NCBI GenBank assembly: GCA_937936785.1
Contig: CALDDQ010000015.1
Coordinates: forward strand, 189 to 64,188
Origin: an uncultured Endomicrobiia bacterium
GTDB taxonomy: Bacteria; Elusimicrobiota; Endomicrobiia; DTEH01
Direction of reading: 5' to 3'
DNA length: 64,000 nt
In this document: positions 57,509-63,927 of the stretch, in pieces
Layout of the letters: every line of letters starts with the position of its first letter
Numbering within the stretch: the stretch's first letter is position 1
Program-made: the position numbers and the translations under genes
The notes under the pieces: model-generated
Seen by the model: the letters and a program-made list of their open reading frames with translations, nothing else
Database searches by the model: none
What the model was told of the DNA's origin: nothing

Positions 57509-58503
57509 AAGAAAAAATAGTTGCTATAGGGATAGACATTGGTGGAACAGAGATAAAGTATGGTTTGGTATTAAAAGAGAATAACGAGTATTACTTGATA
57601 AACCATGGTTCTGTTAAGACTCCGAAAAATGATGTAAAATCTGTAGTAGAGATTATTTTTATGGTAGTTGATAAATTACAAAAAGTTTATCCAAATATTG
57701 ATGCTGTTGGTATAGGAGTGGCTGGGATAGTAGACAATAACAGAGGCAAAGTTTTTTATGCACCAAATTTAAAATGGGAAAATATAAATCTTAAAAAAAT
57801 TTTATTAAAAAAGATTAAAGTTCCTCTATTTATAGATAACGATGCTAATTTTGCTGCTATAGGGACTCATTCTTATGAATTAAAAAAAAGGTATAAAAAC
57901 TTAGTTTGTTTAACTTTAGGCACAGGTGTAGGTGGTGGAATAATTATTGATAACAAAATTTACAACGGTTATTTTGGTTTAAGTGGCGAGTTCGGTCATA
58001 TGACGATATATCCTGATGGTGAAAGATGTAATTGTGGGAATAGAGGTTGTTTAGAAAGATATGTTGGAAGTCAGTGGTTTTTAAAAATGGCAATAAAAAA
58101 GATAAAAGAAAATAAAGGTTTTCAATACAAACAAATTTTATCTTTAGTAGGGAATGATATTAATGCAATAACTACTAAAACATTATATCTTGCAGCAAGA
58201 AAAAATAATGTTTTTGCAAAAAATCTGTGGTCGCAATATGGTAAGTATTTGGGAATTTTGGTTGCAAATATTGTTGTAACAATAAATCCACAGATAATAG
58301 TTTTTGCTGGAGGTCTATCAGGTGCAAACAAATATTTCTTACCTTCCTTAAAAAAAGAAGTTAATAAAAGAGTTTTTCCATTAGTGACGAAATGTGGCAG
58401 TAATTTCTTTTCTATAGAAAAAGTAAAATATTATTGTTCTTCCAACACAAAAACATTAGGTATTTTAGGTGCTGCAATTTATACTATAGAAAATATTTTA
58501 TGA
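57505..58503 (+). CDS. ROK family sugar kinase (glucokinase-like)
   Basis: GIDIGGT, DNDAN, TLGTGVGGG, GEFGH..CNCGNRGCLE. Confidence 0.9.
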   Translation: MKEKIVAIGIDIGGTEIKYGLVLKENNEYYLINHGSVKTPKNDVKSVVEIIFMVVDKLQKVYPNIDAVGIGVAGIVDNNRGKVFYAPNLKWENINLKKILLKKIKVPLFIDNDANFAAIGTHSYELKKRYKNLVCLTLGTGVGGGIIIDNKIYNGYFGLSGEFGHMTIYPDGERCNCGNRGCLERYVGSQWFLKMAIKKIKENKGFQYKQILSLVGNDINAITTKTLYLAARKNNVFAKNLWSQYGKYLGILVANIVVTINPQIIVFAGGLSGANKYFLPSLKKEVNKRVFPLVTKCGSNFFSIEKVKYYCSSNTKTLGILGAAIYTIENIL

Positions 58504-60449
58504 AATGGTTTGTCTTACCTACGAAAGTAATTATTATAACTGTCATATTTTTCATTAACATTTATGCAAAAGACAGTTTTGTTTTGAATGCAGAAAGTGT
58601 TGTATATGATGGTGAAAACAAGAAATTAATTGCTAAAACAGATGTTATTTTAAAATATAAGGATACAATAATAAAAACTCAAGAAGCTATTTACGATACT
58701 GAACGTGAGTTGGTATATACAACAACAGATACTGTTATTTATCGTGATAAAAATATTATAAATTTAAGTAATATGGTTTATGATATTACTACAGGTTCTA
58801 TAACTGCAGAAAATTTTTCTAGTTTTTTTGACCCATATTATTTTTATGCTGGAAGTTGTGTTATAAAAAAAGACAAATATATTTTGATAAACACAAAAGT
58901 TACACATTGTGATGAACCAAATCCACATTATTATTTTGAAGGGAAAAAAGTTGTAGTATATCCAAAAAACAAAATTGAAATATATACTCCTAAAATTAAA
59001 ATATTTGGGATACCAATTTTATGGTTACCATACTATGAAATTTCATTAAAACATCGTCGTGATTGTATGATAATAGAACCTGGATACGATAGTTATAACG
59101 GTTCATATGCGAAGATTAGATATATTTATTCTTTGTCACAATCAAATTCTGTACATTTGTTATTAGATTTATTTCAATATCAAGGAGTTGGTACAGGGTT
59201 GGAGTATAGGTATTATTCCACAAAACAAAGTGGCCTTTTTTATGCTTACTATATTAAACAACGGTCAGATAATAAAATTAGGTGGAATCTGTTATTTAAT
59301 GATTCTCACAAGATAAGTAATATGTGGACTATGCAAACAAGTTTAGAATTTTTAAGTGATCAGGATGTGTATTATTACTACAATAAAGAAAATTGGTATT
59401 TGTTAAGAAATGAAATTAATTCCAGCATATCTTTTATTCGTAATGCAAACAGGACAACCTTAAGGACAACATATTTACGAAAAGATGAATATGATTCTTT
59501 GACAGAAAAATTTGTTAATAAATATTATCAGATACCAGTGAATTTTATTTATTATCCAAGTAATATTGGAAAATTAACCATTATGGAAACATTTTCTTTC
59601 ATCCCAACTTTTATTGAATCAACCAACTACTATAACATTTATGTTGCTAATCAAATTTCAGCATTTTATCCGTTAAGAATATCAATATTTGCACTAACAC
59701 CTAATTTGTATTTAACAACAAATTTTATTAAACCAGATCAATATAAAGATTTTTATTATTATAATGTTTATACATTTGTTTTTCCTTTAAGGTACAGAAT
59801 AAGAAGTTTTGGTATAGCAGATATATCTTATAATTATGGCATAAAGTCGTTAAACAACAGTTTTTTGTTAGATGAGAGTTCTGATGGAGTAACAAAGAAT
59901 AGTATAGTTCCAAGAATAGATCTTTTTTATAGGAGAAAGTATTTAAGAACATATTTTGAATATAACTTTTTAGTTAGAACAGGTGATTGGACAGATAATA
60001 TTACTCCAATAAAAACAGATTTAGGAACAGATTTTGGTAATGTTGATATAAATTTACATACAAGGTTTAATGTTAAAAATAACGTAGTGGAAAACTCGCA
60101 GGTTTCGTTAGGATATAAATTTAATTTAAGGAATCGTTTTGGAATAACCTATGTTAATGACATAAATAATCCTGAAACACATATAATACATACATCAGTT
60201 GATTTTGCACTAAAAAACTTGTGGCAATTTAGAATACAAACAGTAGGAAATTATGTTAAATATTATGATATTATAAATTCAACCTATGAAATTTATAGGA
60301 ACTTACACTGTTGGGAGACAAAAATTGCATATTCTGACCGTAAAAATGTTCAAGAAATTTGGTTTTATATAGGATTTAGATTTAAATCTTCTTCAGAAGA
60401 AAGATTGGACCATCTTGACAGACAGTATATGCCATGGCGTAATAAATAA
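58500..60449 (+). CDS. LptD-like LPS assembly outer membrane protein
   Basis: Signal peptide, beta-jellyroll N-terminus, THCDEPNPHY, IPILWLPY, C-terminal RNLHCWE; start overlaps the ROK stop. Confidence 0.75.
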   Translation: MKWFVLPTKVIIITVIFFINIYAKDSFVLNAESVVYDGENKKLIAKTDVILKYKDTIIKTQEAIYDTERELVYTTTDTVIYRDKNIINLSNMVYDITTGSITAENFSSFFDPYYFYAGSCVIKKDKYILINTKVTHCDEPNPHYYFEGKKVVVYPKNKIEIYTPKIKIFGIPILWLPYYEISLKHRRDCMIIEPGYDSYNGSYAKIRYIYSLSQSNSVHLLLDLFQYQGVGTGLEYRYYSTKQSGLFYAYYIKQRSDNKIRWNLLFNDSHKISNMWTMQTSLEFLSDQDVYYYYNKENWYLLRNEINSSISFIRNANRTTLRTTYLRKDEYDSLTEKFVNKYYQIPVNFIYYPSNIGKLTIMETFSFIPTFIESTNYYNIYVANQISAFYPLRISIFALTPNLYLTTNFIKPDQYKDFYYYNVYTFVFPLRYRIRSFGIADISYNYGIKSLNNSFLLDESSDGVTKNSIVPRIDLFYRRKYLRTYFEYNFLVRTGDWTDNITPIKTDLGTDFGNVDINLHTRFNVKNNVVENSQVSLGYKFNLRNRFGITYVNDINNPETHIIHTSVDFALKNLWQFRIQTVGNYVKYYDIINSTYEIYRNLHCWETKIAYSDRKNVQEIWFYIGFRFKSSSEERLDHLDRQYMPWRNK

Positions 60450-60515
60450 ATACTATAGAAAATGTTAGTAATTATAGATTTTAAATGTAGTATTAGTGCG
60501 CACTTGTTTCAATGC

Positions 60516-60544
60516 TTGACAATAAAAAAATTTTTGTATATAAA
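60516..60544 (+). promoter_or_regulatory. Candidate sigma70 promoter for the nrdR-DGC-histone operon
   Basis: TTGACA-17bp-TATAAA; ATG 9 nt downstream. Confidence 0.6.
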
Positions 60545-60553
60545 AATAAAAAT

Positions 60554-61048
60554 ATGAAATGTACTTATTGTGGTTATTCTGATACTCAGGTAATAGATAC
60601 ACGGTCAATAAAAAGTGCTTCTATTATAAAACGAAGAAGGTTATGTAAAAATTGTCGCCGTAAGTTTACAACTTATGAACGTATTGAAGAGATACCATTA
60701 CGTGTTATTAAACAGAATAATCAAAGAGAACCGTTTAGTGTAGAAAAGTTAAGAGAAGGAATTTTGCGTGCAGTTGAGAAACGACCAATAAGTTCAGAAA
60801 CTGTTGAACAAATTATAACAGAAGTTCAACAAGAAATTGCAGAAAAGTTTACTTTAGAAGTTCCATCAAAAACTATTGGTAAGATGGTTTTGGAACGATT
60901 ATTTAGTTTAGATCCAGTTTCTTATATAAGATTTGCTTCGGTATATTATCATTATGATAGCATAGAAAATTTTTTAACAGAAATTCGTAAATTACGTCGT
61001 GTGTACAAAAAAAAGAATAATATCCCAAAATTAAATTTTAAATCTTAA
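60554..61048 (+). CDS. nrdR: Transcriptional repressor NrdR
   Basis: MKCTYCG..DTQVIDTR, RRR.C..C..KFTTYER, ATP cone, YIRFASVY. Confidence 0.95.
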   Translation: MKCTYCGYSDTQVIDTRSIKSASIIKRRRLCKNCRRKFTTYERIEEIPLRVIKQNNQREPFSVEKLREGILRAVEKRPISSETVEQIITEVQQEIAEKFTLEVPSKTIGKMVLERLFSLDPVSYIRFASVYYHYDSIENFLTEIRKLRRVYKKKNNIPKLNFKS

Positions 61049-61055
61049 ACAAATA

Positions 61056-62180
61056 ATGTTGGAAAACAAAATGGCACAAGATACTCATGCTGTAGAAGAC
61101 TTATATGACGAAATAAAATCCTATGGATTTAATATAGAGAGTATAGTTTCTGGAGATGTTTCTGCACCAAAAAATATTAAAGAAAAAGTTGACAAACTAA
61201 TTTCTTTAGACCAAAATTTTTATACAAAATTATTACAACAGTTTGTTTCAGAAGATTTTGAAGAAGAAGAAGCGAAACGTTTATGGTTTGAGATTTTGTC
61301 TCACAAATATTCAATTTCAGAAAAACTTGGACGAAATGTTGGACTAAAAGTTGCATTATTAGATTATTTAGAGAATATAAAAGGTATAATAAAATCATCA
61401 AAAATTATTGAAGAGGAAGAATTTATAAAAACATTAAAAATGGCTACAGTAGATCCTTTGACAGGTTTATATAATAGACAACATTTTTTTGAATTAGTTA
61501 GAACAAGAATTCGTCAGGTTAAACTTTACAGTATTGCATTTCTTGATCTTGATGGTTTTAAACTATATAATGATGCAGAAGGGCATCAGGCAGGTGATTT
61601 GATTTTACAAGAGTTTGCTTTTATGTTAAAAAATAGATTTGGTTCGGAAAATAATATTGTTGGAAGGTATGGGGGAGATGAGTTTATTGTTTGTATGTTA
61701 GGTTTAGGGAAAGAGAAATCTCAGCAACAAATGGATGAATTTAGAATTTTAGTACAAGAACAATTTTCTGCAGTGAAAATTACTGTTAGTATTGGAGTTT
61801 GCGAATATCCTAACGATGCAAAAGATTTATATGAACTTATTGCAAAATCAGACGAACTTTTGTATAGAGTGAAAGAATTTGGTGGTAACAAAGTTTTTAG
61901 GTTAAGAACCATAGTTTTTGATTATTATCCACAACCAAATCAAAAATCTAAAGAAGTTTCTGTAGTTGGTGATTTTAATAACTGGGATCGTAAGCAAGGT
62001 ATGATGGAGTTTGTTGAAAAAGAAAATAAATGGACAAAAAAGTTGTTACTTAAACCGGGCAATTATAGATATAAATTTTTAATAGATACAAACTTTTGGC
62101 AAGTGGACAAAAATTCAACTAAGTTTTCAGATGATGGTTTTGGTGGGCAGTGTTCTGTTTTAACAGTATTAGAAAAATAA
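61056..62180 (+). CDS. Diguanylate cyclase with N-terminal helical (DUF4032-like) domain and C-terminal CBM48/AMPK1-type glycogen-binding domain
   Basis: DPLTGLYNR, DLDGFK.YND..GH..GD, RYGGDEF; C-terminal VSVVGDFNNW...W.....L.PG.Y.YKF.ID..W..D..DGFGG..SVL. Confidence 0.85.
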   Translation: MLENKMAQDTHAVEDLYDEIKSYGFNIESIVSGDVSAPKNIKEKVDKLISLDQNFYTKLLQQFVSEDFEEEEAKRLWFEILSHKYSISEKLGRNVGLKVALLDYLENIKGIIKSSKIIEEEEFIKTLKMATVDPLTGLYNRQHFFELVRTRIRQVKLYSIAFLDLDGFKLYNDAEGHQAGDLILQEFAFMLKNRFGSENNIVGRYGGDEFIVCMLGLGKEKSQQQMDEFRILVQEQFSAVKITVSIGVCEYPNDAKDLYELIAKSDELLYRVKEFGGNKVFRLRTIVFDYYPQPNQKSKEVSVVGDFNNWDRKQGMMEFVEKENKWTKKLLLKPGNYRYKFLIDTNFWQVDKNSTKFSDDGFGGQCSVLTVLEK

Positions 62181-62213
62181 TAATATATTTTTAAAAATAG
62201 GGGGAATAAAAAG

Positions 62214-62396
62214 ATGTCTGAAATATTGGTAGTGGTAAGTAAAATAAAAAAAATGGTTAAAGAACAAGGATTAAGAACAGGAGAAGATTATATAACAAAT
62301 TTGTCTGCAAAAGTAGAAGGTATGATTAAACAATCAGTAGAAAAAGTAAAATCAGAAGGCAAGAAAAAAACTCTTGGAGCGGAAGATTTGTTGTAA
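62214..62396 (+). CDS. Bacterial histone-fold protein (Bd0055/HBb-like)
   Basis: 60 aa, basic; E.LVV.SK.KK..KE.G N-terminus and KTL.AED C-terminal histone-fold signature; SD AGGGGG. Confidence 0.85.
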   Translation: MSEILVVVSKIKKMVKEQGLRTGEDYITNLSAKVEGMIKQSVEKVKSEGKKKTLGAEDLL

Positions 62397-62426
62397 AGCA
62401 ATTTTTAGTGTTTAAAATAAAGTTTA

Positions 62427-62798
62427 GTGTTGCGGGTGAATAAATCATTAGGGTTGGGTGATATATTTTTAATTTTGTTTTTATTAGTATTTTCTGTTTA
62501 TAGCTACACATACATAACAAAATTTTTCATTTTGGTAGAAAATCTTCAACTAAAAATTTTTTCAGAAAAAAAAGAAGAAACTTTTCCGTTATTGAAAGAT
62601 TTTGAGATTTTAAGAAATGGTGTTAGAATAGTAGTTCAAGGAAGAAAAGTTTTTGTATTGGAATCAACCTGTCAAAATAAGAATTGTGTAAAGATGGGAA
62701 AGATTAGCAAAGCAGGACAGTTTATAATTTGTGCACCAAATAAAGTTGTAATAAAAATAGTTTCACAGAACTTACCTATAGATACTTTAGGATTCTAA
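62427..62798 (+). CDS. NusG domain II-containing (DUF1312-like) membrane-anchored protein
   Basis: GD plus TM; STCQNKNCVKMGKIS..GQ.IICAPNKV.I. Confidence 0.82.
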   Translation: MLRVNKSLGLGDIFLILFLLVFSVYSYTYITKFFILVENLQLKIFSEKKEETFPLLKDFEILRNGVRIVVQGRKVFVLESTCQNKNCVKMGKISKAGQFIICAPNKVVIKIVSQNLPIDTLGF

Positions 62799-62799
62799 A

Positions 62800-63876
62800 A
62801 TGCAAAATGAAAAAGAAGTTTTGGGTTATTATATTTCTATTGCTGCGTTGTTACAAATAATTGACAGTATGATTCCATATCCTGTTGTCGGAATAAAACT
62901 TGGGCTATCAAACATTGTGACATTGTTTGTTTTGAACATTTTTGGTATTGTTCCTGCAATAAAAGTTGCACTGTTACGTCCTATAGTAGCGGGAATAGTG
63001 ATTGGTAGTCTTGGTAATTCAATGTTTGTTATAAGTTTTTTTAGTTCAATTTTGTCAACAATTTTAATGGTTTTTGCATTTAGTTTATTTAAGAATATTT
63101 TTTCAAACATAGGAATAAGTATTATTGGTGCTGTAGGGCATAATCTGTCGCAATTAGTAATTGTGTATTTTATGTTCATATCAAATGAAACAGTATTTTT
63201 ATTAGTGCCAATTTTGATATTGATGGGAATAATATTTGGTTTTATAACTGGGTATCTTGTAAATGAAATAATTTCTATGGTGCCAAAAAATAAAAGTATA
63301 AAAAAAATATTTAATAAAGATACTATTGTAGAAAAATTAGATTCTTCAGTTTATGAAGGAAAATTATATTTTATACTTTTTTTTATAATAATATTAGCGA
63401 TAGTATTAGGATTTATCATTATAAAAGATATTAAGATGATAAGTTTTATATTTTTATTTTCTTTAATACTAAAAGGTGTAAATATGCTTTTTTTTGAAAA
63501 GATTAATTTGTTTAATAAAATTAATATAGTTAAAACAATAACACAAAATTCAAAATTAAAATTTTTTTTTGTAATGATGTTTGGGATATTTTTGATAAAT
63601 ATAATTTCTATATTTTTATACAAACACTCTTTTGAACAATCGCAGTCTATTCTAAAAAATGTTTTAATATCAATTTTGAAACTTACAACATTTATTTTGT
63701 TGTTGGAAGAATTGTTAAAATCAAAGTATTTGTATAATATATTAAAAAAGGTTCCAATGGTTTTTTATAGCATAAATCTGGTGAAACAAATTTTACCTGA
63801 AATAAAAATTGACAAAAAAATGGGTTTAAAATTTATATTAATAAAACTTTTAGTTAAAGATGTGTATCAAGATTAA
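62800..63876 (+). CDS. Gx transporter family protein with a C-terminal multi-TM extension
   Basis: IP.P..GIKLGLSNIV, LLR, S.IGISIIGAVGHN..QL; about 190 extra hydrophobic residues. Confidence 0.75.
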   Translation: MQNEKEVLGYYISIAALLQIIDSMIPYPVVGIKLGLSNIVTLFVLNIFGIVPAIKVALLRPIVAGIVIGSLGNSMFVISFFSSILSTILMVFAFSLFKNIFSNIGISIIGAVGHNLSQLVIVYFMFISNETVFLLVPILILMGIIFGFITGYLVNEIISMVPKNKSIKKIFNKDTIVEKLDSSVYEGKLYFILFFIIILAIVLGFIIIKDIKMISFIFLFSLILKGVNMLFFEKINLFNKINIVKTITQNSKLKFFFVMMFGIFLINIISIFLYKHSFEQSQSILKNVLISILKLTTFILLLEELLKSKYLYNILKKVPMVFYSINLVKQILPEIKIDKKMGLKFILIKLLVKDVYQD

Positions 63877-63898
63877 TAAATTTTTTTGATTTATGAAT

Positions 63899-63927
63899 TT
63901 GTAAGTTTTTGTCAATTAAAATATAAT
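63899..63927 (+). promoter_or_regulatory. Candidate sigma70 promoter for the next gene beyond the window
   Basis: TTGTAA-17bp-TATAAT. Confidence 0.5.

Follow-up and report, generated by a model that had tools for sequence, protein, structure and literature searches.

Does a frame of sixty codons in AT-rich DNA from an uncultured Endomicrobiia bacterium encode a genuine bacterial histone and, if so, to which class does it belong, and what does a lysine in the place of the clamp arginine mean for its way of binding DNA? Research on bacterial histones is young; structures have been solved for two types, the dimer of HBb and the tetramer of HLp, and whether they bind DNA as end-on filaments or by bending it is debated. 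Elusimicrobia or Elusimicrobiota have already been named as histone-bearing (PMC10627809, PMC11390915, PMC11317129); Schwab et al. place bacterial dimers predominantly in phyla that include Elusimicrobiota and give the class motif as RKTxxxD (PMC11390915), and Hu et al. describe the DNA-contact residues of HBb as conserved in Elusimicrobiota relatives (PMC11317129). In the titles and abstracts returned by literature searches neither an experiment on an Elusimicrobiota histone nor a Lys-for-Arg clamp was found; Supplementary Figs 10-13 of Hocher et al. and Supplementary Figs 14-15 of Schwab et al. may show the Lys clamp as well as gaps in the phyletic distribution.

The gene and its surroundings

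The window, that is, the whole stretch of 64,000 nucleotides analysed here, belongs to a genome assembly of 1.56 Mb in 25 contigs (95.9% complete) in which the histone gene is single-copy. The basic frame of 60 residues reported by the first-pass annotation was recovered with the same coordinates and with a translation that agrees letter for letter; it runs on the + strand from the ATG at 62214 to the last base of its stop codon at 62396. The product (P0001) is a protein of 6.6 kDa with a pI of 9.30, 11 lysines, a single arginine and a net charge of +3. The features at the locus are the following:

60512-61048: NrdR gene, upstream of the histone gene
61056-62180, + strand: gene whose product joins a GGDEF diguanylate cyclase to a glycogen-binding module (AMPK1_CBM/CBM_48) and resembles DUF4032 in its N-terminal part
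62160-62189, + strand: promoter-like site, TTAACA, 18-nt spacer, TATATT (10 of 12 consensus matches), overlapping the 3' end of the upstream GGDEF gene
62199-62204, + strand: Shine-Dalgarno (SD) sequence AGGGGG, 9 nt 5' of the ATG, with a pairing energy of -9.3 kcal/mol
62214-62396, + strand: histone gene, 60 codons plus TAA, identified as an ORF and by homology, predicted fold and predicted dimer

By predicted anti-SD pairing, the SD of the histone gene ranks second among 59 ORFs of the window (the histone ORF and 58 others of 100 aa or more that do not overlap), a ranking that assumes the canonical anti-SD, which may not be that of this genome's 16S. Pairing is weaker than -2 kcal/mol at 37 of the 59, in line with the earlier remark that a strong SD stands here amid many genes without one. 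The other four of the five strongest SDs precede genes for an OmpA-family protein, ribosomal protein L20, a NUDIX protein and RpoD, so a strong SD in the window mostly goes with usually well-expressed genes; an SD-like core was also found 5' of 75 of the 76 parsed orthologues. The promoter-like site might be a promoter, although matches of this kind near the gene number 8 against 5.0 +/- 2.1 in shuffled sequences, which is barely above chance in DNA that is AT-rich. A scan of 61800-62900 returned no intrinsic-terminator-like site.

The histone gene is followed on its 3' side by genes for a NusG-domain-II protein and a membrane protein resembling heptaprenyl-diphosphate-synthase component I. 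The order NrdR, GGDEF-CBM, histone is found at four of five loci of the window's family and at none of six loci elsewhere in the phylum, and no neighbour common to the phylum emerged among these eleven compared loci; the histone is therefore read as a free-standing gene. On the scale of the window, 55 of the 59 scored ORFs lie on the + strand, GC skew is positive throughout (0.11-0.28) and GC content is 26-29%, as would be expected if the window were part of the leading strand of one replichore. At some distance upstream (58434-60449, + strand), an ORF of 671 aa has as its only Pfam match a sub-threshold, LptC-related one (E 4.5e-4, 20.3 bits where the cut-off is 21) and may encode a putative LPS-transport outer-membrane protein.

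A relative of the Bdellovibrio histone

P0001 had been aligned by eye, over its whole length, with Bd0055/HBb of Bdellovibrio. A phmmer comparison with PDB chains gave that same protein as the best match (8fvx/8cmp, E 1.2e-7), the alignment spanning residues 1-58 of both, and next came Leptospira HLp (9qt0, E 1.4e-3) and archaeal HTkC (9f2c, E 1.9e-3). With a family profile of 117 sequences the E-values were 1.1e-11 for HBb, 1.8e-7 for HLp and 1e-6 for HTkC, and beyond these three no PDB sequence was retrieved at E<=1, archaeal nucleosomal histones included. Identity with P0177, an HBb-like representative, is 44% (BLASTP). A set of 5.8 billion proteins holds 283 relatives at E<=1e-3, and tblastn confirmed 196 species-level loci (one genome per species, about 185,000 species); among the best 80 of these 196, 75 are labelled Elusimicrobia, Elusimicrobiota, Elusimicrobiales or Endomicrobia/Endomicrobium and five only 'bacterium'. 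The matches in Elusimicrobiota share 55-82% identity, and none of the matches across the searched genomes of the phylum has an internal stop. Conservation was read from 117 of the 120 relatives listed among the 283 matches, three with N-terminal extensions of 72-84 aa and the same motif being omitted; S9, K10, K12, R21, T22, K51, T53, L54, G55, E57 and D58 are invariant in all 117. The first two of these form the N-terminal S9-K10 motif of bacterial histones described by Hocher et al. (PMC10627809).

Automatic annotation gives little hint of this relationship. Scans of P0001 with Pfam and NCBIfam gave no match at E<=10; the gathering threshold of PF00808 (CBFD_NFYB_HMF) is not reached, 33 of the 117 clade members matching this family at E<=1 with a best value of 0.0033, and another 33 match Hydantoinase_B as weakly, and spuriously. 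The latter match explains the name 'N-methylhydantoinase B/oxoprolinase/acetone carboxylase alpha subunit' that JGI gives to some members; in one source members are also named 'lactoylglutathione lyase'. The relatives with a named origin are MAG proteins from Endomicrobiia/Elusimicrobia and all bear the label 'hypothetical', so the expectation that such short genes are often left as hypothetical held: source names are either 'hypothetical protein' or wrong. The annotations of Elusimicrobiota thus hide a probable major chromatin protein. P0001 itself, as an orthologue within a family that has been recorded in print before, is an ordinary find for the window, its clamp variant being apparently conservative.

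Predicted fold and dimer

An AlphaFold2 (AF2) model based on the 117-sequence alignment (mean pLDDT 81.5, pTM 0.52) contains helices at residues 2-17, 24-48 and 56-58 according to DSSP. The modelled layout is alpha1-L1-alpha2-L2-short-alpha3, so the histone arrangement whose absence the first-pass annotation would have counted against its reading is present in the predicted structure. On the DNA, the segments lie as follows:

62217-62264, + strand: helix alpha1, residues 2-17 (DSSP on the AF2 model), with S9-K10 and K12 invariant and K13 and K16 near-invariant
62265-62282, + strand: loop L1, residues 18-23, with R21-T22 invariant; one residue shorter than L1 of HBb
62283-62357, + strand: helix alpha2, residues 24-48 (25 residues, AF2 model), a short central helix typical for bacterial histones
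62358-62378, + strand: loop L2, residues 49-55, G-K-K-K-T-L-G, with K50 inserted and variable, K51 in the clamp-Arg column and K52-T53 as the conserved DNA-contact KT pair
62379-62387, + strand: one-turn helix alpha3, residues 56-58, A-E-D, with D58 (62385-62387) as the clamp aspartate and E57 replacing HBb R57

In a Foldseek search against the PDB, ranks 1-9 were taken by HBb (TMq 0.79-0.80, 40-41% identity), HLp (0.72-0.73) and HTkC (0.71), all with a probability of 1.00, and they were followed by eukaryotic H4, H2B, TAFs and other histone folds. The best E-value was 4.4e-3 and no PDB match reached E<=1e-3, which is expected for a chain of 60 residues and is still weak by that measure.

A dimer model had also been proposed as a check, and the two-copy model indeed forms a handshake dimer with a score of 0.75 (0.72, 0.75 and 0.77 in three runs) against 0.00 for the best of three controls; the runs have at least 98% of their contacts in common and partner pLDDT is at least 86. 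In calibration, 20 of 30 proteins with a solved structure as one-chain pairs reached the mark for this score, as did 1 of 23 with a solved single-chain structure and, since HBb dimers are already solved, a pass means likeness to solved dimers and is not proof of dimerisation. The modelled interface sets L1 (residues 20-23) against L2 (residues 52-56) of the other chain, as in the histone handshake, and the contacts that R21 makes with T53 and L54 of that chain have the lowest expected error. PDB sequence match, predicted fold and predicted dimer all support the HBb/Bd0055-type identity first put forward for this frame, and P0001 is taken as a genuine bacterial histone of the HBb type.

The lysine clamp and the longer L2

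The L2 signature of P0001, G49-K50-K51-K52-T53-L54-G55-A56-E57-D58, reads GKKKTLGAED as previously claimed, and the two peculiarities deduced from it, a clamp Arg replaced by Lys and one added residue, were both reproduced in a MAFFT alignment and in a BLASTP alignment with the HBb-like representative: K51 falls on the clamp Arg (HBb R51), K52-T53 on the KT pair and D58 on the clamp aspartate, and K50 stands opposite a gap as the extra L2 residue. HMMER places this gap one position later, so that the register of L2 is not unique; K51 is taken as the clamp position on account of the fixed spacing from T53 to D58, the variability of position 50 (K in 64, G in 33, N in 13 of 117, and others) and the existence of relatives with G-K-R-K-T. 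The literal RKTxxxxD motif is replaced by K51-K52-T53-xxxx-D58, with K, T and D in register and Lys for Arg. The codon of K51 is AAA (62364-62366). Among the species-level orthologues that were parsed (76 from the best 80 of 196 loci), 71 have Lys and five have Arg at the clamp, and all 76 have both the clamp aspartate and the extra L2 residue. The Lys clamp together with the longer L2 is a signature of the Elusimicrobiota clade and not a peculiarity of this organism.

AT bias was considered as the source of the Arg-to-Lys exchange and rejected. The 76 orthologue loci range in GC from 0.28 to 0.70 (median 0.60), over which K51 is kept, being encoded by AAG at loci with 55% and 62% GC; furthermore, R21 is kept in the present genome at 26-29% GC. 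A quickly built tree over 60 columns compared 86 rows of the ingroup with 6 canonical rows as outgroup, the clamp column being left in for the count. The five Arg rows fall in three places among the Lys rows, so that at least 3 changes are needed; resolution is poor, with 2 of 77 inner branches starred, and several rows are duplicated between collections. This pattern suggests that Lys and Arg interchange at the clamp within the Elusimicrobiota family, and such an interchange is better explained by a salt bridge to D58 that has been retained than by a novel mechanism. The Lys clamp looks conservative and unlike the mark of an altered mechanism.

DNA-contact residues and a proposed mode of action

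Twelve residues of HBb contact DNA according to Hu et al., who combined crystals and molecular dynamics (PMC11317129). Seven of them are identical in P0001 (S9, K10, K12, K16, T23, which is T22 here, K52 and T53) and the remaining five differ: Val stands for T8, the invariant Arg21 for N22, Gly for S24, Glu for A25 and an invariant Glu for R57. HBb R57 is given as the second most DNA-contacting residue in the molecular dynamics (PMC11317129), and with this residue changed to an invariant Glu and T8 to Val the binding geometry of HBb may not transfer to P0001. Bd0055 is described as being without the 'sprocket arginine', which elsewhere enters the minor groove and is held there by the L2 threonine (Hocher et al., PMC10627809). 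R21 of P0001 aligns in HMMER with the L1 arginine of HTkC, where HBb has Asn, and it may be a candidate sprocket arginine of the archaeal type, its equivalence to that of HMfB being drawn from published description.

On these grounds the following mode of action can be proposed. Two P0001 chains would pair head-to-tail in a histone handshake, as modelled, and the pairing would build two composite L1-L2 sites. By analogy with the HBb-DNA crystals, S9-K10, K12, K16, T22, K52 and T53 would be placed for sequence-independent contact with the phosphate backbone; Lys51, in the place of the clamp Arg, would form a salt bridge with the invariant Asp58 and so hold the shape of L2, and the invariant Arg21 may enter the minor groove like the archaeal sprocket arginine. 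Most likely, P0001 would then be one of the abundant nucleoid-associated proteins, acting independently of HU to bend or coat DNA, a role suggested by its solved relatives and its conservation, and chromatin in this organism may be histone-based, as first suggested for this frame. The probability that P0001 is an alpha3-truncated histone of the 'bacterial dimer' class acting by this mechanism is put at roughly 0.8.

Histone class and alternative readings

The 'bacterial dimer' category of Schwab et al. is defined by sequence clustering (PMC11390915). HBb is the best PDB match of P0001, histones of the face-to-face (FtF) type scoring about 1e4-fold worse with the family profile, and in the AF2 model alpha3 is truncated to three residues, where the class has 3-4, and alpha2 is shortened; RKTxxxxD, which combines the RD clamp and the KT contacts, is treated in the papers as a conserved feature and not as a class-defining criterion. 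The tetramer interface of nucleosomal histones is described as requiring a three-turn alpha3 and an alpha2 histidine (Hocher et al., PMC10627809). The chain of P0001 ends at residue 60, two residues after its one-turn alpha3, and none of the 117 relatives has His at position 47, which is Ser here and A/Q/T/S/N/R across the clade. The bacterial dimer class fits P0001 better than the FtF or the nucleosomal class does.

That the frame is a chance or decaying one has its appeal in only 183 bases of DNA at 26-29% GC with no Pfam or NCBIfam match, but the 283 homologues, the 196 species-level loci, the lack of internal stops, the invariant motif columns and the retention over 0.28-0.70 GC refute it, and its probability is practically nil. 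A more serious rival, though quite improbable, is that P0001 is an FtF histone like HLp and HTkC, forming stable tetramers that wrap about 60 bp of DNA. These two are the next-best relatives both by sequence and by fold, R21 is aligned with the L1 arginine of HTkC at a position where HBb has Asn, HMMER pairs the near-invariant K44 with an HLp arginine four residues before the tetramerisation Asn, and eight of the 117 relatives have Asn at position 49. On the other hand, the HBb score is better by the four orders of magnitude mentioned above, and the residues that would make the tetramer are different. Schwab et al. mark the FtF profile by tetramerisation residues R48 and N52 upstream of RxTxxxxD (PMC11390915); judged from this published description, P0001 has neither, the Asn position being Gly49 (or Glu48 in the gapped register of HMMER) and the Arg position Val45 in the ungapped and Lys44 in the gapped register. 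Additionally, bacterial dimers are reported to give no confident AlphaFold multimer above the dimer (Schwab et al., PMC11390915), and larger Elusimicrobiota genomes hold a separate FtF-like paralogue with R...N-G-R-K-T, which makes the two histone types distinct lineages.

Another rival, which we regard as very improbable, is that P0001 is a specialised, low-level histone-fold regulator or complex subunit outside general chromatin organisation. Such a role would agree with the near-universal presence of HU in the phylum (382 of 401 genomes), with the failure to find the gene in three large families and with the sequencing runs that match positions 60500-63900 of the window, which are three DNA runs of one study and none of RNA; Hocher et al. 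raise non-DNA roles for some histone folds (PMC10627809). It is opposed by the lack of a phylum-wide conserved partner gene among the loci compared, by the conserved strong SD of a single-copy gene and by the fact that the HBb DNA-contact residues are the most conserved positions; moreover, HBb and HLp are reported to be abundant and to bind DNA non-specifically (PMC10627809, PMC11317129, PMC12701072).

Distribution in Elusimicrobiota

The family is large (196 species-level loci) and tightly conserved. In 401 sampled genomes of the phylum, a search with P0001 found matches in 125 (100 of 293 high-quality genomes, 77 of 123 genera), and a broader histone profile found them in 142 (111 of 293 and 84 of 123, respectively). 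The histone is near-universal in most Elusimicrobiota families, for instance in 8 of 9, 9 of 11, 9 of 9, 10 of 10 or 41-43 of 48 genomes. Three families depart from this rule. In f2, which belongs to the window's class, none of 89 genomes gave a match with either P0001 or the broad profile, and the 20 matchless genomes listed are 97-100% complete. In f20, none of 118 genomes matched P0001 and five matched the broad profile weakly; the three of these five that were inspected sit inside frames of 589-648 aa, cover profile positions 9/10-44 only and were rejected as small histones. In f24, P0001 matched in two and the broad profile in nine of 47 genomes, seven of the nine weakly (E near 1e-3, frames around 130 aa long). 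This looks like a lineage-wide loss of the histone in f2, f20 and f24, which may, given their small genome sizes, be host-associated lineages. Genome reduction alone does not explain the absence, since the window's own family, with genomes of 1.2-1.9 Mb, keeps the gene; whole families without a histone imply that it is not indispensable to such cells. A bin labelled Candidatus Endomicrobium trichonymphae (L052) carries a Lys-clamp histone on a contig of 8.9 kb, against the apparent absence in one Endomicrobiia family.

Genes of the HU/IHF family are present in 382 of the 401 genomes, with or without a histone and also in f2, f20 and f24, and this genome has two of them. The histone always occurs together with HU, and it therefore adds to HU and does not replace it. 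Larger Elusimicrobiota genomes often contain a second histone of more divergent sequence (profile E 1e-15 to 1e-20), which a genome search did not find in the window's own genome. Five of the six fetched examples (L015-L019, from G344, G078, G130, G072 and G398) have the canonical clamp N-G-R-K-T...H-D and an FtF-like R...N, and L020 differs; the presence of this canonical-clamp paralogue indicates that the Lys-clamp type is a separately maintained lineage. Other arrangements were seen as well: P0127 (279 aa) begins with an unrelated N-terminal region and ends in a histone domain of the Lys-clamp type, and many matches of 118-162 aa (P0132-P0136, P0139, P0142, P0143, P0150 and others) are tandem doublet histones with canonical RKT clamps.

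Comparison with known histones

P0001 resembles HBb/Bd0055 (8fvx, 8cmp, 9ezz, 9f0e) in its length class, in its full-length alignment at 40-44% identity, in the short alpha2 and one-turn alpha3, in S9-K10, K12, K16, K52-T53 and D58, and in the predicted handshake dimer; its net charge and pI equal those of the HBb-like representative. Unlike HBb, it has Lys for the clamp R51, an L2 longer by one residue and an L1 shorter by one, as a result of which T53 and D58 keep their HBb numbers. N22 is exchanged for the invariant R21, R57 for an invariant Glu and T8 for Val, and the position of HBb D49, which reinforces the clamp (PMC11317129), is variable in the clade (E/D/A/S). Because the family differs from HBb precisely at the disputed residues (the clamp, the sprocket position and R57), it offers a natural comparison set for the determinants of the binding mode. 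A bolder proposal, which is conceivable and rather doubtful, goes further: the Lys-clamp histones would form a distinct Elusimicrobiota subfamily, with a longer L2, a shorter L1, a sprocket-like Arg21 and Glu57, whose DNA geometry would be unlike both published modes of HBb (minor-groove insertion of Arg with canonical bending in place of end-on coating); in most Elusimicrobiota lineages they would act as the chief organiser of the nucleoid, and a few large families, mostly of small genomes, would have lost them entirely.

HLp of Leptospira perolatii (9qt0-9qt2) and HTkC of Thermococcus kodakarensis (9f2c) share with P0001 the alpha3-truncated fold (TMq 0.71-0.73) and equivalents of T53 and D58, to which HTkC adds the L1 arginine. 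P0001 is unlike them in the weaker similarity (profile E 1.8e-7 and 1e-6), in having no tetramerisation Asn and in the Lys that stands for the clamp Arg. The second Elusimicrobiota paralogue is of the same phylum, size class and fold family, and it differs by its canonical clamp and its FtF-like signature. With archaeal histones of the HMfB type, P0001 has in common the histone fold, an L2 spacing of the RxTxxxxD type, an acidic pair ahead of the motif's end and possibly, going by published descriptions, an L1 arginine of the sprocket type; unlike them, it has no three-turn alpha3 and no tetramer His, and its alpha2 is about one turn shorter.
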